The notes under the pieces are model-generated. The model made no database searches. It saw only the letters and a list, made by a program, of their open reading frames with translations, and was not told the origin of the DNA. The position numbers were made by a program, and so were the translations under genes. A DNA stretch of 54,410 bases, taken from a virus. Lineage: Duplodnaviria > Caudoviricetes. Below are positions 2-41,683 of this stretch, one piece after another; within the stretch, counting starts at the first letter, position 1, and each line of letters starts with the position of its first letter. The DNA lies in the IMG/VR virus record IMGVR_UViG_3300029266_000978, positions 1 to 54,410 of that record. One strand, written 5' to 3'.

Positions 2-3000
2 TCATCTATTCCAACACTTGGAATAATAGACACAACTAATAACGCTAAATTTGTTGCTTATGTTAGAGATTCTGATGCTACTATAGGCACGGAAACAAAC
101 CACCCATTAACTATAAATACTAACAATTCAGAAAGAATGCGAATCCTTTCTAACGGTATGATTGGTGTTGGAACGACTAGTCCTACTACAAGATTAACAA
201 TCAATGGAGACCATAGTGGTAATTTAGCTGCTAGAATGAATATTTATTACCCAGGATCACAAGCTGATAGAAACGCTTATTTAGACATGTGGGCTTCAGA
301 GCCAGGCGTTAGCTATAATGGTTCTGGAATAGGTAGTAATATTCTTGGAACACCATATTATGGTAAAAAGACATCCGTACAAGGAATGGCTTACATTAGA
401 TTTCTTAGTGGTACTATTGGGCTTTGGACGGGTACAGTAGCGAATACAGTTGCTACTGAAAGAATAAATATTAGTGATCAAGGATCTATAAAGTTTAATG
501 CTTACTCAGGTACCGCTAAAACAGGTACTCCAACATACGTATTAGGTACGGACGCATCAGGTAATGTTGTTAAAGTATTAGGTGGTAATATACCAGGCGG
601 TGGTGGTACAGTTACTGGAACAGGTGCTGCTACAAGAGTCGCTTTTTGGAGTGGAACTTCTTCTTTAAGTTCAGATTCTAATTTATACTGGGACAATACA
701 AATGATAGATTAGGTATTGGAGGTGGTACGCCTATAGATAGACTGCAAGTTTATGGTGGTAATAATACAGGTATAACAATTTCTTCTAGCGGTTATGTTG
801 CTAACGCAGGTTCTATGCTAAGGTTTAGAAATGGTAATTCAGAAGAACTTGCGGGAATAAAAGGTTCTTTTGAGCAATCAAATCAAGGGAATTACGGAAA
901 TTTAACATTTCTTACTAGAACAACAGATGCTTTAGGTCTTGAAGAAAAAATGCGTATCACCTCAGGTGGTAATGTTGGTATCGGAACGACTAGTCCTAGT
1001 AGTAAATTACAATTAAAAGGTGATTCAACATATTTAGAGGTTAGAGCAGCTGATAATAGTCAAGCGGTGCAATTAGGTACGGATGGCTCAGGAGACGGTT
1101 TACTTCAACTATATAGCGACGCGGGTGCTGTAAAGATTAAACTATATGGTGAAGCGGCTAGTCCTAGTTTTATTAATGCTGGTAATTTCGGTATTGGGAC
1201 AACTGCTCCTACTCAAAAATTACACGTTGTAGGTAATGTTTTCTTAAGTGCTAATAATGCGTATATAGCAAGCTACGATAATACTACCAATTATCAAGGT
1301 ACTATGAGATGGGCAGGTTTGCAACTGGGAAACAATGGAGCAAATAGAATAGTAGCAGGTAGAACAAACGCAGGAGGTTCATTTCAGTTTTGGACTAATA
1401 ATACTAATGACGCTTCTGATTACACAGTAACTCCAAACGGTGTAATGACTATGTCTATGCTTAATACAGGTAACGTTGGTATTGGGACAACTGCTCCTGC
1501 TGAAAAACTAGTAGTTGTTGGTAACTCAATTACACTTAGCAAAACTAGAGGTCTAGGAACAAACTATGCTACATCAGAAGGATGGGTTGCAAGTTCGGTT
1601 GGCACTTTTACTAGTCAGACTGGTTACTTTACTGGTAGTTTTAATACTATTGGTGGTAGTGCAGAAAACAAAATAGAATATGATATTGGACCATTTGGTT
1701 CAAGAGAACTTGTTTGGATGACAGTACCTGAAACTATCAGCAATGATGATGGTGGTTGGAATAAATCAATGACTGGATTTAATAATTCCGCTAATAACGG
1801 AATGATGTCTGTTGTTTACATGAGAAGAGATGCAGGTACTCCAGCTGGTAATTTTTATCATGGTTGTAGTGGTAGTAATACTTTAAATTTAGATGGATCA
1901 GTAAACGGTAATCCTTACTTTTGCGCATTTGGAATAAGTGTTCTTCCAGCTGATGTATGGTGTGTTTCTATAGGTATAATATATGCAACTAATGACGCTA
2001 ACACTACAGCTTCTTCTTTAACTGGTACTTATAGATTAGATACTGGTGAAAAAATACATAGTGGAACTACTTACAGACAAAAAAGCTCGTTTGCTAATCA
2101 AGAGCAAAGAGTTTATCATTACTATTCAACAAGTCCTAGTGCGCAATTAGATTTTGCAAGACCAGGGTTTTATATAATAGATGGTTCAGAACCTACGCTA
2201 AGTGAAATAACAGCTGGAGCCGCAGGTGGTAGTGATGTTTTTTGGAGTGCAAATGGTAATAATATATATAATGACAATTCTGGTAACGTTGGTATCGGAA
2301 CGGCTAGTCCTAGTGCTAAGTTAAATGTTGTTGGCACTGCTACATTAAAAGATAGTGCTTCTCAAATTACCGTAAATAATGCTGCATATACAGAAATGCA
2401 ATATGGGTCTTCAAATTATTTTAGAACTGACGGAAGCCAAGCTATAATTAACGGCCCTATTATTACTTTTAAAATAGGGGCAATAGAAAAAATGCGTGTT
2501 AATTCTAATGGTAACGTTGGTATTGGAACGACTAGTCCACAACAAAAACTTCACGCAGACGGAAATACTCAGTTAGGTAGAAATGGAAATAACACTGCAG
2601 GCGATCCACAAAAAACTATAATATCTGGCCAAGGAATAGAAGATGTATCTACTGGTAATTTTTACGGTTCTTATGGATTTTTAGAATTAAGTTCAAACAC
2701 TAATTACACAGGAAGCGCAAGGAGATTTGCAATAACAAATGGGCTTCTAGCAAACAAATTTGCTATAATCCGAAGCGATAGTGGTATGGCTACCATGCAA
2801 CTTGGCGTTGCTGGCGCGGTACCTACTGGAGCTACAGCTGATTTTGTTATTGATAATTCAGGTAAGATTGGTATTGGAACGACTACTCCTAATGATAAAT
2901 TAAATATACATAGTCCCACGGCTAGTGCTAATTTAGGTTTAAAAATTACTAGAGGCTCACAAACACACGGATTAAGATTAGGTGTTAATGACTCACACGC

Positions 3001-6000
3001 TTTTTTATGGACAACAGAAAATCAAGATTTAGTATTTGCTACAAATGACTCACAAAGAGTAGTAATACAAGCTGGCGGTAACGTCGGTATTGGAACAACT
3101 ACTCCTGCCAATAAGCTTACAGTTAATGGTACTATAGAGTTAACCACGGTGGGAAATGCTGTTGCTTTTGCAACGTCAGGAGCAGCGGCTTCAAATGGAA
3201 TTAAAACAGTAAATAGTTTTGAAACTGTTATATATAATGGTAGAGGGTCTGCAGGATTTGCAGTTGTTGGAAATTCTGATATTAGATTAGGTTTTGGAAC
3301 AGCGTATACAGCTGCTCAAACTACACTAACGCTAAAGCCCACTCAAGACGCAACTTTTGCAGGTAATGTTGAAACTAATAAAAATATATTTCAAGACATA
3401 GGAAGTAGAGGTGGATATATAATGAGACCTTGGGGAGCCGATTACTTAAACTCTACTGTAGACGTTCACACAGGGGCTATAAAAATAATATTGCCTACTA
3501 CTGGTAATATGGACGATATGCTAAAGTTCACTGTAGATATTTATCAATATCGAAACGGTGAATCTACAAGTGTTGATGTAGCTGGATATATATATCAAGC
3601 ACCTGGTAATAACACTTGGATAAATTGTACAACTATTGTAAACGCTAAAACTGCAGGAGAAAACTATACGGTTAGATATGGTGATGATGGAACCAATCAT
3701 TGCGTATGGATTGGCGAGCTTAACTCAACTTGGAATCACCCACAAGTAATTGTAAGAGATTTCTATGGAGGGTTTTTAACAGATACAAATGCATACTTAT
3801 TAGAATGGGATATTGAGTTTGAGGCAACAGCTTTTGAAGATGTTAATGTAACTCAATCAAATAACTTTCCTATGTCTTCAGGTGGAGTTAGTGGAGCTTT
3901 CTTACCACTAGCTGGTGGAACAATGACTGGCGCTACTTTACATGGAGATAATGTATTATCAAGGTATGGAACCGGCAACGATTTTTCCATTTATCATAAT
4001 GGAACTGATGGATATTTACAAAACGAAACAGGAAATTTAATCATACCAAACGGAAACGTTGGTATTGGAACATCAGCACCTAGTGAATTAGTTAATATAT
4101 TAAAAAACAATTCTGGTGGTGGGGCAAACGGACAAACTTCAATTAAAATTGGGGGGGCTACTAATTATCCTAGTTTAGAATTTGGAATTATTAATAGCTA
4201 CGATGGGATGATTAGAACTTATGGTAATGACTTAGCTATATATGCAGGTCATTGGAGAACTATAGGTGCTGTAGCAAGTGAAGATCATCAAATAAAATGG
4301 CATACTAGTAAAAATGGATCTGCTGACTGGTCAACTCCTAAAATGTACTTAGATCATAATGGGAATCTTGGTATTGGTACGACTAGTCCTGTGTCTACGT
4401 GGTTAAGCGGTTTTGATCCAGCTACAGGAAACGGTACTTTTAAATTAACTTCGGAAGGTTGGATAGTAACTCCTTATAGAACTGGTTTAGCAGGGTATTT
4501 TCCTGGGCAAGGAGCAAGACCTATAGTATGGGCTGATAGTGCTGGTACAAATATTCAGTCTTGGGACAACGGTGCAACAGATGGAGTTAGTATAAGATCT
4601 TCAAATAAATCAGTTAGACTTTTTGTAAGAGAAGATGGTAACGTTGGTATTGGGACAACTAGTCCTTCATCTAAATTAGAAATTTCGGGATTTCCTACTG
4701 CACAAGGATTAAGATTAAATTACGGTAATTCTTCAGGTACTGTTGAAGCTATAAACTTTCAAGCTAACGGTGGAGCAAATGGTGTAATTGGTATGCAAAT
4801 GGTAAGCTCCAATGTAGGTGATTTATGGTTAGGCGGGTCAGCAGGAAGAACATTAACTTTATATAGAAACGGAACCGTTGGTATTGGAACGTCTACTCCT
4901 GCTACAATATTACATGTAGCTGCCGCGAATGCTGTATTAAGAATTGAAGCTACAACAAATGGCCAGAACTGTAGTACATGGTATAAAGCAAATGGAGATA
5001 ATCAATGGGAAACTGGTTGTAATATAGGTGCTGGTACAGATTATCAAATTTATGATCGTCTTAACAGTGCTTCAAGAATGGTTGTTGGCCATAATGGTAA
5101 TGTAACAGTTCCTGGTAAAATAGGTATTGGAACAACTAATCCTGCAGTTGCGTTAGCGGTTGAAGGCCATATAAGATCTATCAATGATAATAGTGGTGAT
5201 TTTCTTGACATATTTTGTGATGGTGATGGAACAGGTAATTCTATTATTAAAACCAGCGCAAATCAGTTAATGCTTATACCACAAACTGGTGTTCTAAACG
5301 TTCAAGGAGAGAATTATGGCTCAGGTACTAATGCTAAAATAGAAATTTTTAATGCTCTTAATGCTGCTGTTAAAGTTAGCTTAAACAGCTCTGGTGATTC
5401 TTATCTTAACGGTGGTGATGTTGGTATTGGGATAACTAATCCTAGTTCTAAATTAGAGGTAGCGGGTTACATAAAAACTAGTGACGGAAACAAAGGAGCT
5501 GCGGCATACACCTTTACAACGGCCGCAAACACGGGAATGTTTAGAGATGGCGGTGCTTTAGCTTTTACAGTTGGAGGAACACAAACCGTATCTATAAACG
5601 CAGGTACAATGGGCGTTGCAGGTAGCCTTATTGTTGGAACAACAGCTTCCATTCCATCAGGAGTTAAATTTAAAGTAGATGGAGTTTCGCTAATTGAAGA
5701 CAGTCCTGGTGTTGCAGATTTTTATTTAGGAAGCTATGCAGGTACTAATCACTTCAGATTCCATACAAACAATTCAGATACTTATTTTGATATGAATTGT
5801 GGTAATTTATATTGGAGAGACGGAGGTTCTACTAGATATACTTTCTTCCCTTCAACTGCTAACATGACTGTTAATGGTACAATAACCCAGAACTCAGATA
5901 TAAGAGTTAAGGAAAATATAATTGAAATAGGTGATTGTATTAGTAAAGTTCAAGCCATGAGAGGTGTTTACTATAATAGAACTGATTTTAACACAGAGGC

Positions 6001-6193
6001 TACTAAAGTTGGTGTTATAGCACAAGAAGTTGAAGCTGTTTTACCAGAGCTTATAGTAGAATCACCTGAAGACGGACTTAAGTCTGTGGCTTACTCAGAA
6101 CTAACAGCTGTGTTAATAAATGCAATAAAAGAACAACAAGAAATTATAGAAGATTTAAAAACAAGAGTAAAACAATTAGAAATTAATAATTAA
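2..6193 (+). CDS. Long tail fibre with repeated [10 protein letters not shown] modules and C-terminal intramolecular chaperone (peptidase S74-like); 5'-truncated by the window
   Basis: The frame is open from base 2 to the ATG at 137. It has about 15 G(N/K)(V/I)GIGTTxP repeats and a C-terminal SDIRVKENI...GVIAQEVE...VAYSEL...coiled coil typical of S74 auto-cleaving chaperones. Confidence 0.9.
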
Positions 6194-33681: not shown

Positions 33682-35124
33682 ATGAATATAAATTTAGTAA
33701 AAGGCGCTGCACTATTAGGCCAGAGTAAAGAATCTACCTGGGGAGATCGTGCTCAAGCTGTAGCAAAAGAAACCGGACAAGAGTTAGCTATAATGACTGC
33801 TCAAAACATGGCAAAAAAAGCTTTAGTTAATACTAAAGTAGGTGCTTATATAAATTCATTAAACTCTGATATTGATTTAACTCAATTAACAGGAGAACAA
33901 AATTCAGCAGTTTCTAACTATCTAGTAGAAAACAAACAAAAATACGCGGAGTACGCTACTCAAATAGCTAAAATAGATGATCCTTCTTCTGGGAGGTACA
34001 TGGAGCTTAGAGATAAAATGAATGGTATTCAAAGCAGCTTTTCTAATTTAGCAGGCCAAATGGGTACATATAAAGAAGAAAAAATAGCATACTTAAAAGA
34101 TTTTGATGATCAAAGATTATCTGATGGTAATAAATTAGGTGCTTTGAAAAATGCTGGAGATATATTTACGGATCAAGGCATAATGGGAATAGGTAAAGGT
34201 GGTAACTTAAATTTTTGGAATGAAGAAGATGGCAAATATGCTAACTATGCAACTATTGAAAAGCCTTTCTTAAAAGATTTTGCTTCTGCTGATAAAATTT
34301 TACAGCTAAACGAGAGTGTGTATAGCGCAGGTAAATCTTTAAGTGGTGCTAGGCAAAATATGGTTAGAAATAAATTAAAAAACATGATAAATTCAGGAGG
34401 TAGAGATACATTGTTATCTTTAGCGTCTGATGATTTTTTAATTGAAGGTGGTTTAAATTTAGAAGACCCATCACTTTTTGAACCGGCTAATGAAGATCTA
34501 TTAAGAGAAACAGTTCTTAATAGCTATATGGATGCCATGGTAGATAGTGCTGCTCAAGGTGCTGCTGAAAAAAGACCAGCAAATAGTGGAAGCGGAAGAA
34601 GAGGAAGCAAGACTGGTTTTAGTGGAGCTTTGAATGATGAAATTGATTTATCAGGTCCTGTTATTAATAAGGCAATGGGATTCTCTGAATTAGCAAATGA
34701 AACTCCTGGTATTGATAAAAACAATAATATAGTTAATCAAATAAATGCTATAGATCCTACAGCTAAATCAAACCCTTATATTAGTAGAGATAGAATGCTT
34801 ACTCGATGGATGGTAGGAAATGATTTTGATGATGATGAAATGGAAGAGGCTGATGTAGAGTTTACTAAAGAATACGGTAATGCTCAAATATTTAAATTTA
34901 ATGCCGCAAATCCTGCAGATTCTTATGGAACAAATATAGATGTAAACAACCCTCAAGCTTTATATGAATTTTACATACAGAATTCCGGCTTCTCTGGTAA
35001 AGCTCAAAACTATCATTTAGGTCAATATGAAACTTACAAAGGTAGAGGCAGTAAGCAAGAAAAGAATAACGAAGAAGTAATAGTTGAAGAAGAAAAAATA
35101 GAATCACCAGGTAACTTCGGTTAA
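33682..35124 (+). CDS. Internal virion protein
   Basis: 480 aa, helical, between two ejection-type genes. Confidence 0.6.
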   Translation: MNINLVKGAALLGQSKESTWGDRAQAVAKETGQELAIMTAQNMAKKALVNTKVGAYINSLNSDIDLTQLTGEQNSAVSNYLVENKQKYAEYATQIAKIDDPSSGRYMELRDKMNGIQSSFSNLAGQMGTYKEEKIAYLKDFDDQRLSDGNKLGALKNAGDIFTDQGIMGIGKGGNLNFWNEEDGKYANYATIEKPFLKDFASADKILQLNESVYSAGKSLSGARQNMVRNKLKNMINSGGRDTLLSLASDDFLIEGGLNLEDPSLFEPANEDLLRETVLNSYMDAMVDSAAQGAAEKRPANSGSGRRGSKTGFSGALNDEIDLSGPVINKAMGFSELANETPGIDKNNNIVNQINAIDPTAKSNPYISRDRMLTRWMVGNDFDDDEMEEADVEFTKEYGNAQIFKFNAANPADSYGTNIDVNNPQALYEFYIQNSGFSGKAQNYHLGQYETYKGRGSKQEKNNEEVIVEEEKIESPGNFG

Positions 35125-35134
35125 ATTAAATTTT

Positions 35135-38100
35135 ATGGCAGAGAACATTTTAAAAAACATATGGAACGAATTATCTTCAAAAGGTAAAACGGATTCAGAC
35201 TTTGATTCATGGCAAACAAATCTAAATGAAAATGAAGATGTGCAAGCTAATGTATACAATTATTTAAAAGATAACGATTATACAAAAAGCGAATTTAGCG
35301 AATGGAAAAGCAATGCTCTTGTAGCAAAGACAAACGACTCTGCAAGTGCGAATCCAAGTGTGGAGTCAGGAAAAAAAGATACGGGATTCAAATCGGAAAA
35401 TACTTTATCGGATTCACCTATTGAAAAAAATACTTGGTTAGAAAACTTTTTAGGCGAAAAAGAAGATGCTGAAGACAAACTGTTTGGTCTTGTTGATTTT
35501 GTTAGTGATACATATAGAGCTGTAAAAAGCGGAATATCTACAGGAGCAAGTGTTGATGAATCTTTTGACTTATTTAATAAGGGCAGTAATATGTCTGATC
35601 AAGAAGTTGAGGATTTAATAATAGCAGGTAGACGAGTAGAAAACGCAGGAATGTCTAAAGAGCAACTTGAAGCTTCCGCTAAAATGGCTAAACTAAAGGA
35701 AGAAGGCTACACAGGCATGGGTGCTTTTATGGGTGCTTATTGGGATAATCCTTCCGCTTTAACTAGCATGTTTGTTTCTTCTCTTTCTATGATGGCTGCC
35801 AGTTTTATAGATAGCGGCGAGGTTAGAGCTAGTTCCGCAGCAGGATCAGGAGCAGGAGCCACAGCAGGTGCAGGTGCAGGTGCGGGAGTTGGAGCATTAT
35901 TTGGCGGTGTTGGTGCATTACCTGGAGCAGCAATAGGTGCTAAGCTAGGAGCAGTAAGTGGAGCTATGAGTGGAATTACCGCTGCTATGGAAACAGGTCT
36001 TACAACCGCTCAGCTTCTTCAGGAATCGGCTGAAGAAACAGGTGTCGAGTGGGGGGCTATGGATGATAAGCAAAGAATAGCTTATGTAAGGGAACTTACT
36101 TCTGATAAAGAAAGATTTAATGATATAACAAACAAAGCTTTAGCAAGAGGTTTGACAATAGGAAGTGTTGATTTTGCAGTTAACATGGCTACTTTTGGAA
36201 CTGGAAAACTTGTTTTTGGAGCGGTAAGTAAAAGTGCAGCAAGTGCTTTAACAAAGCCAATAACAGGATTAGCCGCTGGTTCTGTTGAAACAGTAGGATC
36301 AGGTTTTGGTGAATATTTAGGTCAAAAAGCTGCTGGTCAAGAATATAACTTTGAGGAAATTGCTTTAGAAGCTTTCGCTGATAAATCAGCAACAATCGTA
36401 ACGGCTGTTAAAGGCATGAAAAAAGGCAATCCTTCTTATTCTATTAACGGGCAAAAAATGAATGGTAAGCAAATGTCCGATGCTTTAAAAATTATGGACG
36501 ATTTGTCTTATGTAAAAGCTGACATTAAAATTGATGATTCTCCAGCTGTACAAAAAATAGTAGACAATAGAAGACAAAACATATCTGCAGATCAACAAGT
36601 AGATAGTAGGATAAATGATGTAAAGGATAGAACAGAAGCTATAAAGTTAACAAAAGAATACGATAAATTAAAAGGCAATAGAGAAGGTAATAAAACTAAG
36701 CTTGCACAAATACAAGAAAAGCTTACTATTATTTCAGATAAATATACTAATTCACAGATTGATGCAACAATAGATCAAAGACAGAAAGCTGTTGCTGAAG
36801 CTGTTGAAACTAAATTTGAAGAAAGTTTTAATAAAAATGTTAAAGCTCTTACAGATGCTCAAGAAGAAATAGGCGTAGAGCCTGTGGTTTTTGAAAATGA
36901 TGAATCTTTTTATAGTGAAACATCTAAAGAATTAAATATTACTGAAGAATATTTAAAAGAAAATGCTGTTGATGGTATATTTGTTGGGAACGGTAAAGTT
37001 TATATAAATAAAGCGCAAGCTAAAAGAAGTATAAATATTGCAACTGGAAACACAGGCGCAATATCCGTTGCAAGTCACGAAGTATTGCATCCTATATTTA
37101 ATGCTTTAATTGGAGGAGCTAAAACGCAAGGAGAATTTGTTAAGCAGTTTAGAACAAGAATGACTGGTAAACAAAAAACTTATGTTGACGCGCAATTAAA
37201 GGAAAGAGGATATACTAAAGAGGTTACAGGTATTGAGCTTATGAATATTTTTTCAGATGGTATAATTAAAAATGAAATAACATACGATCAAACATTCTTT
37301 GAAAAGTTAGGTGATAATATTATAAGATTATTTAAAGGGCAAGGCTTTGATAAATTATCTTTTGATAACGGTAAAGAAGTATATAACTTTCTTAAAGAGT
37401 ATAATACAAGTATAAAAGCTGGTAAATTAAGTGACAAAGCTATATCTACTATAAAGAAAGCTGAAGTTGAAAAGAAAACTAAAGTTGCGGATGCTAAGCT
37501 ATTACAAGAAGAACAATTTTCAAAAACATTAACACCTGAGCAAAGCGCTGAAACATCAGCCGATATAGCTAACATTAAAAAATTAGCAGAAGAAAATGCG
37601 GCGTTGGCTAAAAAGTATAATAAGGAACCTATAAAATCTCCTAAGCAAACTAGATTAGAACAGAAAGTTTTATCAAGCATTAAAGAAATCATAGACAAAG
37701 TTGTTACAAATAGAACAAAAGCTTTATATGATCCTATTGCAGATGATGCAAAACGAAATGTAACTAGAGATTCATTTAAAGAATCTATGCGTAGTGACAT
37801 TGAAGCTATGGTTTTGAACGAGTATAATGGTTCTCAGGAATTAGAAAAATTTATAGTAAACAGAAGTTACTTAAGAGCAAACGATTTAGCTAAAAGATTA
37901 GGTATTGAATCTCAAGAAGACGGAGGTATAAAATCTGATGTAGATTCCGCTAAAAATATAACTAACACAAAAGATGAACAAACAATTGATCGTAGTGGTA
38001 CAGTAGAGCGTGGCCAGGCTACATTTGATGAGCTTGATATTGTTGATGATAAACTTATATCAGAAATAGAATCAGAGTTAGATAGAGAGCTTAAAACACG

Positions 38101-41100
38101 CGCATCTAAAGGCACATTATCTGAAATGATTTCAGTTAAAAGAGGTAGAGAAATTTATCTTATATCTTGGCTAGAAAATTATATAGATAAAACATTATTT
38201 AAAAAGATTTTAAAAAAATGGGGAGCTATTGGTGAATCTAAAGGTAAGGTTGTTATACCTGCTGGTTATATAGATTTTTTAAATAGTAAAAAAGCTTTTG
38301 ACATTGTTACTAAAGCATTGCCTATAAAAACTATTAAAAAAAGTTATAGTAATTTATTTAAAATAGAAAGATTAGGTAGAGAATTAACACCTGAAGGTAA
38401 TCCTATATATAAAATACCACCTATAAATAAGAAAACTTTTTTAACTTATTTTCTTGACGGTAAAAAGAATACTATATTAGAAAGACAAAAGCAATTAGCT
38501 AGAGAAATAATAACGCCTGTTACTAAAGAACTTATTGCGGAGTATGCTACTGAAGAAAATATTTCTAAATTAGTAGCAAGACAATCTATAGCTCCTGAAA
38601 CTGCTGTAGATATAGCTAATAAAATAGTTATCGATGCCCAAATAAACGATTTAGAATCTAAGATTGATAGATACAAAGGGGAAACTAAAGGTTTTGATAT
38701 TATACAGTTTTCTAAAAACAATAATTTACAAGGATCTGATTTAAGGGATAAAAAAGGAACTTATAATATTTACGCAGCTTCTAGGCTTGATGCAGATAGC
38801 GCAGCGTTTTTAAAGTTTCCAGCTAGAATAAAGAATTTTATATATGATTTAATTGATAAGGGCCGACTTACAGGTAATGCTTTTGGCGGAGTTGTATATG
38901 AATCTTTAGTGTTAAAGACTTTAAAATCTGCAGCTAGAAATATACCTGGCTTAAGTATTATAACAAAAGATAAAAAAGGTCAACAAGGATCTAAAGGTTA
39001 CGATAGCACTGGAGGAGGTGATATTGATATTGTATTTACTAAAAAGAATGGTAAAAAAATAAAAATACTATTAGAGATTAAAAAGAATGCTAAAGTTAGA
39101 TTTGGCCAAGTAACATTAGGTATAGAAGATGGTATAGTTATATTAAGAAAAAATGGTGATAAATTAGATCCGACTACTATACCTGGAGGAGTAAGCTTAG
39201 TGGCTAGAGCACAAGAAGGTTCTGCTAACTTACAAAAAATATTAGATATAGTAAATAAAGAAGAAGGAACAAATATTAAATCTATTCCTTTAAAAACTTC
39301 TATAAGTAAAAAAACTTATGAGAAAGCTGTAAATTCAAAACCTTATAAAGATTTTATAAAATTAACAGAAGAGTTAGATAAATCAAGAGTAGCTGATCAT
39401 TATAATAAAAAAGGCGTATACTATATACAAATAGGAGGCAAGGGTTTATATTTTATGGGAAAAGATATACATAATTTAGGCGTACCTGAATTAGATGCAT
39501 CTTTTAGAGGAACAGTTCGAGTTAAAAGAGGATCTGTTCAACAAAAAGGTACGGTTTACATGAGCTTAATATCTGAACCAAAAATTGTTGCTAGTACTTT
39601 AAAAAATTCTCCTTATACTCTTGAGACAAAAGAAGGTATTGAAAAAGTATTTAATCAACCGCTATTACAATTATCTAGATCATTGAATGAAGACTTTAAT
39701 GATATAGTTGAAGGTGCAACAAATATAGACAGTAAAAAAAGATATTCTGATGCTAAAGGTAAAGTAAGAGGTAGAAACAAAGGTAAGTTTAAGTTTTTTA
39801 TTCCGCCATCTGCAGATGATTTTGCAGGTTTGGTTAGTAGGCTCTTAGGTAAAGGTAAAAAAGGAGATGCTAATGCAGCTTGGTTTAAAGAAAAATTATT
39901 TAATCCTTTTGCTAAAGGTATTAGAGATTTTGAATCTTATAAGCAACAAACTACCGCTATGGTAAAAGCCTTAAAGAAGCGTGTTAAAAACATTCCTAAA
40001 GGTTTATCTAAAATAGGAGATACTGGATTTACAAATGAAGCTGCAGTAAGAGTATATCTTTGGGCTAAAGCAGGTGTTGAAATACCTGGTTTATCTAAAA
40101 CAGATCAAAAAGAATTAATAGATTTAGTAGAAAATAGCCCAGGCTTATTAGGGTTTGCTAATGAATTAGAACAAGCTTTTAATGGTTATCCAGAGCCGGA
40201 TAATGGATGGCTAGCAGGTACGGTTACTACTGATATTATTAACATGGTTAATACCGCTAAGAGAGCTGAATTTTTACAAGAATGGCAGGACAATGTGGAT
40301 GTAATCTTTTCTAAAGAAAATTTAAACAAACTTAGGGCGGCATATGGTGATAATTATGTAGAAGCTATGGAAGATATGCTTTACCGAATGAAGTCTGGTA
40401 GAAATAGACCTTCTGGAGCTAACAAGCTTACTAATAAATTTATGAATTGGATAAACGATTCTGTAGGTACAATAATGTTTTTCAATACAAGATCAGCATT
40501 ACTACAAACATTATCTATAGCTAACTTTATTAACTGGGGAGATAATAATCCCGCTAAAGCTGCTGCAGCTTTTGCTAATCAAAAACAATTTTGGTCAGAT
40601 TTTGCAATGTTATTTAACTCTGATTTTCTTAAACAAAGAAGATCTGGTTTAAAGAATGATGTGAATGCAGATGATATTGCTAGTGCAGCAGAATCTGCAA
40701 CTAATAAATCAAAAGCAGTATTATCTTCTATATTAAAAATGGGATTCTTACCTACACAAATGGCGGATAGTTTTGCTATTGCAATGGGTGGTGCATCATT
40801 TATAAGAAATAGAATTAATAAATACAAGTCCGAAGGACTAGACACTAAAGCTGCTGAAGAACAAGCTTTCTTAGACTTTCAAGAAGTAGCAGAAGAAACA
40901 CAACAATCGTCTAGACCTGATAGAATATCACAACAACAAGCAAGTCCATTAGGACGTATTATATTAGCTTTTGCAAACACCCCTATGCAATACATGAGAT
41001 TAACGAAAAAAGCTTTCTTAGATCTTAAAAACAATAGAGGTGATCCTAAATCTAATATATCCAAAATAGTTTATTATACTTTTATTCAAAACGTTATATT

Positions 41101-41683
41101 TTCTAGTTTACAATCAGCATTATTTGCAAGTTTAGCATTAGGCGATGACGAAGAGGAAATGGATAAGAAGGAACTTAGAATAGCAAATTCAATGATGGAT
41201 ACCATACTTAGAGGTTTAGGTATTTATGGAGCTATAGTTTCTACTGGTAAAAATATAGTAATGGAAATTGATAAACAATCGAAAGCTGACAGACCTGATT
41301 TTACTAAGGCTGCAGACAAGGTTTTGGATTTATCACCTCCTTTATCTTCTAAGATAAGAAAGTTACAAAGTGCTGGTAGAGCATTTAGTTATTCTAAGAT
41401 TAGAGATAGAATGGTTGGGTATGGCTTAGATAATCCTGCTTTTTATGCAGGTGGCCAAGTAGTGTCTGCTTTAACAAATCTTCCTGTAGATAGAGCTATT
41501 AAAAAAGCGGATAATATAAGAGTAGCTATGGATAATGATACTAAATTATGGCAATCAATAGCACTAATGTTAGGTTATAGTCAATGGGATTTAGGATTAA
41601 TTGAAACAGGACCTAAGAAAAAAGGTTTTGGAAAAGTAAAAGAGTGGAAAAGAAAGTGGAAAAAGTCTAATTGGAAGAAATAA
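35135..41683 (+). CDS. Large polyvalent internal virion / ejection protein
   Basis: 2182 aa with a glycine zipper (GAGATAGAGAGAGVGALFGG), zincin HEVLH, a PD-(D/E)xK-like segment and a helical C-terminal domain. Confidence 0.8.
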   Translation: MAENILKNIWNELSSKGKTDSDFDSWQTNLNENEDVQANVYNYLKDNDYTKSEFSEWKSNALVAKTNDSASANPSVESGKKDTGFKSENTLSDSPIEKNTWLENFLGEKEDAEDKLFGLVDFVSDTYRAVKSGISTGASVDESFDLFNKGSNMSDQEVEDLIIAGRRVENAGMSKEQLEASAKMAKLKEEGYTGMGAFMGAYWDNPSALTSMFVSSLSMMAASFIDSGEVRASSAAGSGAGATAGAGAGAGVGALFGGVGALPGAAIGAKLGAVSGAMSGITAAMETGLTTAQLLQESAEETGVEWGAMDDKQRIAYVRELTSDKERFNDITNKALARGLTIGSVDFAVNMATFGTGKLVFGAVSKSAASALTKPITGLAAGSVETVGSGFGEYLGQKAAGQEYNFEEIALEAFADKSATIVTAVKGMKKGNPSYSINGQKMNGKQMSDALKIMDDLSYVKADIKIDDSPAVQKIVDNRRQNISADQQVDSRINDVKDRTEAIKLTKEYDKLKGNREGNKTKLAQIQEKLTIISDKYTNSQIDATIDQRQKAVAEAVETKFEESFNKNVKALTDAQEEIGVEPVVFENDESFYSETSKELNITEEYLKENAVDGIFVGNGKVYINKAQAKRSINIATGNTGAISVASHEVLHPIFNALIGGAKTQGEFVKQFRTRMTGKQKTYVDAQLKERGYTKEVTGIELMNIFSDGIIKNEITYDQTFFEKLGDNIIRLFKGQGFDKLSFDNGKEVYNFLKEYNTSIKAGKLSDKAISTIKKAEVEKKTKVADAKLLQEEQFSKTLTPEQSAETSADIANIKKLAEENAALAKKYNKEPIKSPKQTRLEQKVLSSIKEIIDKVVTNRTKALYDPIADDAKRNVTRDSFKESMRSDIEAMVLNEYNGSQELEKFIVNRSYLRANDLAKRLGIESQEDGGIKSDVDSAKNITNTKDEQTIDRSGTVERGQATFDELDIVDDKLISEIESELDRELKTRASKGTLSEMISVKRGREIYLISWLENYIDKTLFKKILKKWGAIGESKGKVVIPAGYIDFLNSKKAFDIVTKALPIKTIKKSYSNLFKIERLGRELTPEGNPIYKIPPINKKTFLTYFLDGKKNTILERQKQLAREIITPVTKELIAEYATEENISKLVARQSIAPETAVDIANKIVIDAQINDLESKIDRYKGETKGFDIIQFSKNNNLQGSDLRDKKGTYNIYAASRLDADSAAFLKFPARIKNFIYDLIDKGRLTGNAFGGVVYESLVLKTLKSAARNIPGLSIITKDKKGQQGSKGYDSTGGGDIDIVFTKKNGKKIKILLEIKKNAKVRFGQVTLGIEDGIVILRKNGDKLDPTTIPGGVSLVARAQEGSANLQKILDIVNKEEGTNIKSIPLKTSISKKTYEKAVNSKPYKDFIKLTEELDKSRVADHYNKKGVYYIQIGGKGLYFMGKDIHNLGVPELDASFRGTVRVKRGSVQQKGTVYMSLISEPKIVASTLKNSPYTLETKEGIEKVFNQPLLQLSRSLNEDFNDIVEGATNIDSKKRYSDAKGKVRGRNKGKFKFFIPPSADDFAGLVSRLLGKGKKGDANAAWFKEKLFNPFAKGIRDFESYKQQTTAMVKALKKRVKNIPKGLSKIGDTGFTNEAAVRVYLWAKAGVEIPGLSKTDQKELIDLVENSPGLLGFANELEQAFNGYPEPDNGWLAGTVTTDIINMVNTAKRAEFLQEWQDNVDVIFSKENLNKLRAAYGDNYVEAMEDMLYRMKSGRNRPSGANKLTNKFMNWINDSVGTIMFFNTRSALLQTLSIANFINWGDNNPAKAAAAFANQKQFWSDFAMLFNSDFLKQRRSGLKNDVNADDIASAAESATNKSKAVLSSILKMGFLPTQMADSFAIAMGGASFIRNRINKYKSEGLDTKAAEEQAFLDFQEVAEETQQSSRPDRISQQQASPLGRIILAFANTPMQYMRLTKKAFLDLKNNRGDPKSNISKIVYYTFIQNVIFSSLQSALFASLALGDDEEEMDKKELRIANSMMDTILRGLGIYGAIVSTGKNIVMEIDKQSKADRPDFTKAADKVLDLSPPLSSKIRKLQSAGRAFSYSKIRDRMVGYGLDNPAFYAGGQVVSALTNLPVDRAIKKADNIRVAMDNDTKLWQSIALMLGYSQWDLGLIETGPKKKGFGKVKEWKRKWKKSNWKK
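35326..35389 (+). promoter_or_regulatory. Candidate -1 programmed ribosomal frameshift signal (A_AAG plus pseudoknot)
   Basis: In-frame GCA AAG, 6-nt spacer, stem GACTCTGCA/TGTGGAGTC, and loop GAATCC complementary to downstream GGATTC. Confidence 0.5.

Follow-up and report, generated by a model that had tools for sequence, protein, structure and literature searches.

The described systems closest to the element reported here are the -1 frameshift sites of Escherichia coli dnaX, of the lambda tail assembly chaperone G/GT and of the IS3 family of insertion sequences (IS). In dnaX, a -1 shift on the heptamer A_AAA_AAG, with a Shine-Dalgarno-like element upstream and a stem-loop a few nucleotides (nt) downstream, adds one residue before a stop and yields the shorter member of the tau/gamma pair, which has the same N-terminus as the longer one and is made in a set ratio to it. 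In lambda G/GT, with its two small overlapping ORFs (open reading frames), the shift lies just upstream of the tape-measure gene, extends the protein and is not known to need a downstream structure. In IS3 elements, the shift fuses OrfA to OrfB and a longer protein is made. When combined with an IS3 pseudoknot in E. coli, slippery tetramers were ranked A_AAG >> U_UUC > U_UUU at frequencies of 0.26-5.6%, and the same three tetramers are described as predominating among the tetramer-using IS1 and IS3 elements (Sharma et al. 2014, PMC4066793). Here we describe a candidate -1 frameshift site near the 5' end of a giant virion-protein gene in a viral contig of 54,410 nt (IMG/VR record IMGVR_UViG_3300029266_000978), the whole of which is called the window below. 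The window is a marine podophage contig of the Flavobacteriia type.

The codons GCA AAG (35324-35329) are in frame with an ORF of 2182 amino acids (aa), of which AAG is codon 65. Our preferred reading, to which we assign a probability of roughly 85% from comparative sequence analysis, is that the gene carries a programmed -1 ribosomal frameshift at this codon. The ribosome would decode AAG (35327-35329) while stalled at a hairpin that starts 6 nt downstream and that probably serves as the first of two stems in an H-type pseudoknot. The tRNA-Lys would then re-pair with AAA (35326-35328), 31 further codons would be read in the -1 frame, and translation would halt at TGA 35422-35424. Two proteins with a common N-terminal stretch of 65 residues would result, namely the full protein of 2182 aa and a short isoform of 96 aa (65 + 31), the tail of which would carry a YG.x.G.(W/Y)F.G hairpin preceded by a few clustered Cys residues and a basic stretch.

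The proposed signal is like that of IS3 in that one tRNA would slip by -1 on A_AAG and that a short spacer separates this tetramer from a hairpin or H-type pseudoknot further 3'. The IS3 comparison drawn in an initial annotation of this DNA is apt as a mechanism, A_AAG being the tetramer ranked first in the report of Sharma et al. (PMC4066793), and the alternative tetramer U_UUU, which five relatives have here, is also listed there for IS elements. The locus differs from IS3 in that it is a phage gene without a transposase and not a mobile element, and in that the shift would truncate the giant protein instead of lengthening it. No transposase was found in the window by Pfam or PHROGs and the gene sits within a phage structural module, so membership of an IS3-family element was rejected. 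As in dnaX, the shorter isoform would share its N-terminus with the full-length protein. The proteins are not homologous, however, and here a conserved tail of 25-40 residues follows some 30-100 N-terminal residues. Lambda G/GT resembles the locus in its heptamer, G_GGA_AAG, which occurs in 50 of 82 relatives although the window itself lacks a full heptamer, and in its setting, a phage structural module in which two proteins with a common N-terminal domain would be made in a fixed ratio. It differs in that the phage here is podovirus-like. Membership of the G/GT chaperones was rejected because the site lies inside the giant virion gene, the shift product is shortened and the relatives are podophages.

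The -1 translation past AAG is a peptide of 29-40 residues that is conserved even where the 0-frame peptide varies, and it stays conserved though the 30-100 residues upstream come from several unrelated modules. A regular expression for the tail motif matched 52 of 70 homologous genes with an intact 5' end, with every match in the -1 frame and none in the other two frames (0 and +1). When a profile of the tail was searched against six-frame translations of 79 sources, it found 53 segments (E <= 2.5e-11), all at the -1 ORF, and nothing further at E <= 10 elsewhere in the 2.76 million six-frame residues. By codon position in the -1 frame, entropy was 0.83, 0.46 and 1.28 bits (order 3>1>2), and three codons specified Gly in all 77 blocks, with free variation at the third base. 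Such an order of codon positions, with fixed Gly and free wobble, is a signature of protein coding. Pairwise, the -1 peptide was better conserved than the 0-frame peptide in 94% of close-close, 98% of close-distant and 85% of distant-distant pairs; over the 504 close-distant pairs, identity was 0.43 in the -1 frame vs 0.25 in the 0 frame. The 0 frame in the slip region scored no better than the non-coding +1 frame. Its synonymous codon identity reached the maximum of the whole gene there, 0.82 at codon 64 vs a gene mean of 0.551 (standard deviation 0.064), and the 25 most constrained of 2167 codon windows all start at codons 55-83.

The same conservation might be read as that of an RNA or DNA element in an untranslated -1 ORF, such as a structure in the RNA, a linker for recombination where N-terminal modules are swapped, or a motif of the 0-frame protein. 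The upstream modules are indeed mosaic, the 0-frame peptide KTNDSASADPAVES is conserved within the close group of sequences, and a real RNA structure is present. Such an element does not explain an entropy order of 3>1>2 with invariant Gly codons and free wobble, a -1 peptide that is kept where the nucleotides and the 0-frame peptide have diverged, or a -1 stop that always lies 25-40 codons past the site. We see only the slightest chance that the -1 ORF is untranslated. Judged by its pattern of substitution, the -1 frame is demonstrably a conserved coding frame.

The survey of homologous giant genes comprised 91 loci with the short -1-frame ORF at the 5' end, corresponding to 82 distinct sequences; a first set of 46 distinct sequences was enlarged by 6 viral loci and by 33 of 35 metagenome loci. 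An in-phase A_AAG is present in 76 of the 82 distinct sequences, U_UUU (as xxU_UUU_CAA) in five, and neither in one. The full heptamer is most often G_GGA_AAG (50 sequences), followed by A_GUA_AAG (12), A_GCA_AAG, the type of the window (8), and G_GAA_AAG (4). Within the close group, the DNA is near-invariant even at synonymous sites, and the codon before AAG ends in A in 17 of 17 distinct sequences. That one top-ranked slip motif is swapped for another at the same place suggests selection for slippage and is hard to explain otherwise. In the first 46 distinct ORFs, the -1 frame opens merely 3-17 codons 5' of the slip site, and upstream of the motif ATG, GTG and TTG are absent from 80 of 82 distinct tail ORFs, the exceptions being the window, with ATG at 35302, and locus L003, with TTG. 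Since almost no ORF has a start codon before the motif, the tail ORF appears to be reachable only by a change of frame.

Predicted proteins in databases point the same way. Against 1.84 billion predicted proteins, the tail profile gave 22 matches at E <= 0.001, and 21 of these proteins were read. Most are 58-131 aa long and have an N-terminal module and the tail in one frame, joined at the slip codon, and their N-terminal modules are of the kinds found on the giant proteins. They look exactly like the predicted trans-frame products. They may be natural unshifted genes, A-run indel variants or errors. A search for the source contigs of two of them (P0123 and P0127) retrieved frameshift-type loci alone, one of which (L082) stops 32 codons into the gene. 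In the proteins P0122-P0143, the N-terminal module and tail share a single frame; in P0142, the tail continues in frame into a next domain like that of the giant protein, and in P0127 a 0-frame-like linker precedes the tail.

Instead of being reached by frameshifting, the tail ORF could have its own, non-canonical start among the few codons that are open upstream, and be translated from there. Bacteroidota-type hosts are not known to depend on Shine-Dalgarno sequences, so a start site is difficult to rule out on sequence grounds, and both the window and L003 do have a start codon in the -1 frame. Against this stand the other 80 ORFs, which have none in an open stretch of only 3-17 codons, and the database proteins, in which the N-terminal module and tail meet exactly at the slip codon. 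Initiation within the ORF would also leave the in-phase A_AAG or U_UUU, the fixed 6-nt spacer and the covarying stem unexplained, and we give it hardly any credence.

A stem downstream of the slip site is common in these genes. An uninterrupted stem of at least 7 base pairs (bp), 5-7 nt past the slip codon, was found in 38 of 46 sequences, compared with 12.4% of 93,819 control positions taken in frame from these genes, and at least 12 distinct stem sequences occur among the 38 stems. Of 81 sequences, 63 have a spacer of 6 nt, 15 one of 5 nt and 3 one of 7 nt. On an alignment of 22 sequences, 99% of the cells of stem 1 were paired and three of its pairs had changes on both sides. For stem 2, which would close the pseudoknot, 83.3% were paired and three of six pairs had changes on both sides, which brings the pairs changed on both sides to six over the two stems; when the partners were slid as a control, overall pairing was 21-55%. 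In the window, stem 1 has 9 bp, two G-U pairs among them, and stem 2 gave p = 0.043 against 1000 control stretches. Its GAAUCC:GGAUUC is the compensated form of the GGAUCC of relatives, which pairs with GGAUCC or GGGAUC there, and the variants GGUUCC:GGAAUC (L018) and GAGGC:GCCUC (L039 and L040) have matching arms of their own. Loop lengths of 5, 3 and 16 nt would sterically fit an H-type pseudoknot, which is a plausible, not a settled, structure for this RNA. No Rfam frameshift element fits, as Rfam gave zero matches in 35100-35600 at E <= 1.

The initial annotation had described the A_AAG, a 6-nt spacer, both stems and the 96-aa product from the window alone, and all of these elements are present in the sequence as described. 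The comparison over 82 distinct sequences bears out its central claim, a -1 shift on A_AAG that gives a short isoform: conservation or covariation is seen for the slip motif, the 6-nt spacer and stem 1, and the -1 frame is demonstrably coding and is without its own start in nearly all of them. Of the pseudoknot that it proposed, stem 1 stands, and stem 2 does so in part, with 83% of positions paired and half of its pairs changed on both sides. Its GC-richer island is real but mild, at 40.4% vs 32.3% for the gene, and 8.5% of the 104-nt windows of the gene are as GC-rich.

A change of frame could also be made by the RNA polymerase, through slippage that leaves an extra A in some transcripts. 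Runs of A10-A11 occur at the same place in the more distant relatives MW202828, elemoF gp18 and phi38:1 gp101, and the in-frame database proteins look like products of a transcript or contig with one A added. In contrast, the window and 76 relatives have just three A's before the G, and a three-A run would be too short for efficient polymerase slippage; the downstream stem at a fixed 6-nt spacing is that of a ribosomal stimulator. In 2 studies, contigs from RNA libraries span the site, and none has a letter inserted or deleted within 35300-35400; this evidence is weak, since rare variants are lost from contigs and DNA may be present in RNA libraries. Gaps in the cover of the stretch by these contigs carry no weight either way. 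Loose ends of these contigs at 35385 reflect a related strain that diverges from the window there. We consider polymerase slippage very unlikely for the window and infer that the shift is ribosomal.

Several points weigh against a programmed ribosomal frameshift. The heptamer of the window, A_GCA_AAG, is not a canonical X_XXY_YYZ, so that slipperiness is confined to the tetramer, and in the E. coli assays of Sharma et al. (PMC4066793) the shift frequencies of tetramers combined with the IS3 pseudoknot were 0.26-5.6%. Taken alone, the stem of the window is unexceptional (minimum free energy -12.7 kcal/mol; z = -1.87; matched by 9 of 200 shuffled sequences), and the case for a stem beyond chance is made by the homologues and not by the window. 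The larger set has a stem at 5-7 nt in 70 of 81 sequences, a count slightly flattered because the site with the longest stem was chosen where there were several candidates. Stem 2 is weak per sequence, with a median p of 0.11 and p < 0.05 in 11 of 38. Covariation of the stem and conservation of the Cys residues are partly confounded because the stem arms overlap the tail Cys codons. The tail motif is lacking in 18 of 70 homologous genes, and the in-frame database proteins could be indel errors at an A-run. Finally, no tRNA genes were found in the window contig.

The tail is laid out as a Cys cluster, a basic stretch and then [YFH]G...G..F.G, with the consensus C.C..C ... YG.x.G.WF.G. In the window, the part read after the shift would be 35326-35421, or 32 residues (KDKRLC...FTY). 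In an alignment of 44 tails, C6 and C8 are nearly invariant and G20, G24 and G29 are invariant. AlphaFold run on the tail alignment predicted, with a confidence that is low to moderate, a beta-hairpin of two strands (18-23 and 26-31); the mean pLDDT (predicted local distance difference test score) was 61 overall and 78 for residues 21-30. The initial annotation had suggested such a hairpin, and the prediction agrees with it to that extent. It had also likened the end of the tail to an outer-membrane beta-signal, which was rejected: the terminal aromatic is peculiar to the window, whose tail ends in Y, and in most of the 46 tails the last residue is K, R, N, S, D or G. The tail profile matched nothing credible in the PDB (best E = 0.15). 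It has no counterpart in Pfam either, where a family was hit by 1 of the 44 tails at most (best E = 0.021), and tblastn of the 32-aa tail against the phage collection gave zero matches at E <= 10. In a sub-family (L089-L123), the tail is much shorter, with about 22 residues past the slip and a single Cys (type ...GKDDRPCVKRYGFRVGKWFIG...); this sub-family keeps G_GGA_AAG-type sites, without a start codon.

As for function, the short isoform may enter the assembly of the giant protein through the N-terminal module that both would share, in a ratio set by the efficiency of the shift, and its cationic, aromatic hairpin may contact a membrane or nucleic acid. It is a tentative idea, and on present evidence a doubtful one, that the isoform is an unrecognised small virion or ejection component of Flavobacteriia podophages, which would share the docking module of a giant injected protein, act on the host envelope or DNA through a Cys-containing, aromatic and cationic beta-hairpin, and be made in a ratio set by frameshifting as in G/GT. 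The signal would then have been remodelled repeatedly, as A_AAG, G_GGA_AAG, U_UUU and A10-A11 runs, the last perhaps acting by transcriptional slippage.

Such A10-A11 runs were seen 34-64 codons into the giant virion genes of three distant relatives: L080 (39184-39480 of MW202828), L081 (14719-15020; Flavobacterium phage elemoF gp18) and L125 (36518-36720; Cellulophaga phage phi38:1 gp101). Two of the three genes are from cultured phages. The runs are followed by a -1 ORF of about 28-48 codons that would encode basic, aromatic, Gly-rich peptides. The tail profile had no significant match in these genes; its best was the -1 ORF of MW202828, at E = 0.097, where the tail does resemble the motif, and elemoF and phi38:1 did not match. 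It is possible that they represent transcriptional-slippage versions of the same device, which would make them experimental systems for it.

If the programmed ribosomal frameshift is correct, it is a recoding site new to a large and abundant group of marine phages, of which one viral collection alone holds 341 relatives. A literature search at the level of listings and abstracts found no description of a frameshift in such giant virion genes, and the frameshift is unmarked in both annotated public records that were checked. An ORF of this kind, without a start, would be missed by gene callers. The interchangeable slip motifs, the variety of stem sequences (at least 12) and the dual-coded linker would be useful for training frameshift predictors beyond tail chaperones and IS elements. 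The tail of 25-40 residues would be a new peptide module with no Pfam or PDB relative, and giant injected phage proteins may have a stoichiometric short partner.

The coordinates of the proposed signal, its gene and the two tail motifs are collected in Table 1.

Table 1. Features of the candidate frameshift site and its gene in the window.
Feature	Position	Strand	Evidence
Giant virion protein gene (ejection or 'polyvalent'-type), 0 frame	35135..41683	+	ORF calls, 128 homologues, position in structural module
-1-frame ORF, stop to stop, 41 codons + TGA	35299..35424	+	translation; tail profile
Candidate slip site A_GCA_AAG; slippery part is the tetramer A_AAG (35326-35329) only	35323..35329	+	sequence; homologues
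Spacer ACAAAC, 6 nt	35330..35335	+	sequence; homologue spacing
Stem 1, 5' arm GACTCTGCA (= GACUCUGCA)	35336..35344	+	sequence, folding, covariation
Tail Cys cluster C-K-C-E-S-K-C, -1 frame, overlapping both arms of stem 1	35341..35361	+	translation; alignment
Putative pseudoknot stem 2, loop arm GAAUCC	35350..35355	+	sequence; variants with matching partners in relatives
Stem 1, 3' arm TGTGGAGTC (= UGUGGAGUC)	35359..35367	+	sequence, folding, covariation
Conserved tail motif YGIQIGKYFIG, -1 frame, predicted beta-hairpin	35380..35412	+	motif search, alignment, AlphaFold
Putative pseudoknot stem 2, 3' arm GGAUUC, 16 nt past stem 1	35384..35389	+	complementarity; helix-2 pairing

The loop sequence GAATCC has two complementary copies of GGATTC downstream, the one listed as the 3' arm and a second at 35410-35415. 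RNA-library contigs of the related strain have G for A at 35351, which gives the loop GGAUCC found in most relatives. An in-phase A_AAA_AAA (35371-35377, in GGA AAA AAA GAT), absent from the initial annotation, lies inside the overlap 3' of stem 1. A slip there would also enter the -1 frame, skipping the Cys cluster. The run is not conserved; relatives encode basic -1-frame residues at this place, and similar A-runs are seen in only some of them.

The window spans a whole viral contig, with an estimated completeness of 85%. Its structural module runs from the terminase through the portal, capsid-like and large virion proteins, an ORF of 217 aa and one of 480 aa to the giant gene and an M15-peptidase endolysin. 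The best relative of the terminase is in an uncultured podovirus record (61.7%), followed by those of the Flavobacterium 'elemo' podophages (44.7%) and then of Cellulophaga and Tenacibaculum phages. For the giant protein, 128 database homologues were found at E <= 0.001 among 8000 scored candidates. A search of viral contigs for further loci with the single protein gave zero relatives, whereas an alignment-based scan of viral contigs succeeded and yielded the 341 relatives, of which 78 loci were kept. In the phage collection, a DNA search with 34800-36800 gave just two short matches, each covering 3-4% of the query, and tblastn of the N-terminal 400 aa and C-terminal 482 aa of the giant protein gave zero matches.

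The giant protein is comparable to the 'polyvalent' virion proteins (Pfam LPD38, DUF3293 and similar) in its position at the end of the structural module and in domains of some homologues (PF18857 and PF11697); for the corresponding elemoF protein, the annotation gives a structural role and DUF3293. It differs from them in that the window protein has zero Pfam domains above threshold. The 30-100 N-terminal residues that precede the slip site (35135-35326 in the window; the 5' ends of L002-L079) form a mosaic, with short modules of at least five unrelated types on giant proteins that are otherwise homologous; several of these modules consist of two repeats of about 28 residues. A Gly/Ala-rich hydrophobic stretch at 35840-35990 (residues about 236-285) has a sub-threshold match to DUF6861 and a DNA-level match to a Staphylococcus phage tape-measure gene. 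A further ORF (2-6193), tail-fibre-like and at least 2018 aa long, is cut off by the 5' end of the contig. Residues 647-653 of the giant protein (37073-37093) contain H-E-x-L-H-P, in which H648, E649, L651, H652 and P653 are invariant across 34 homologues, and this motif suggests a zincin-like metallopeptidase site.

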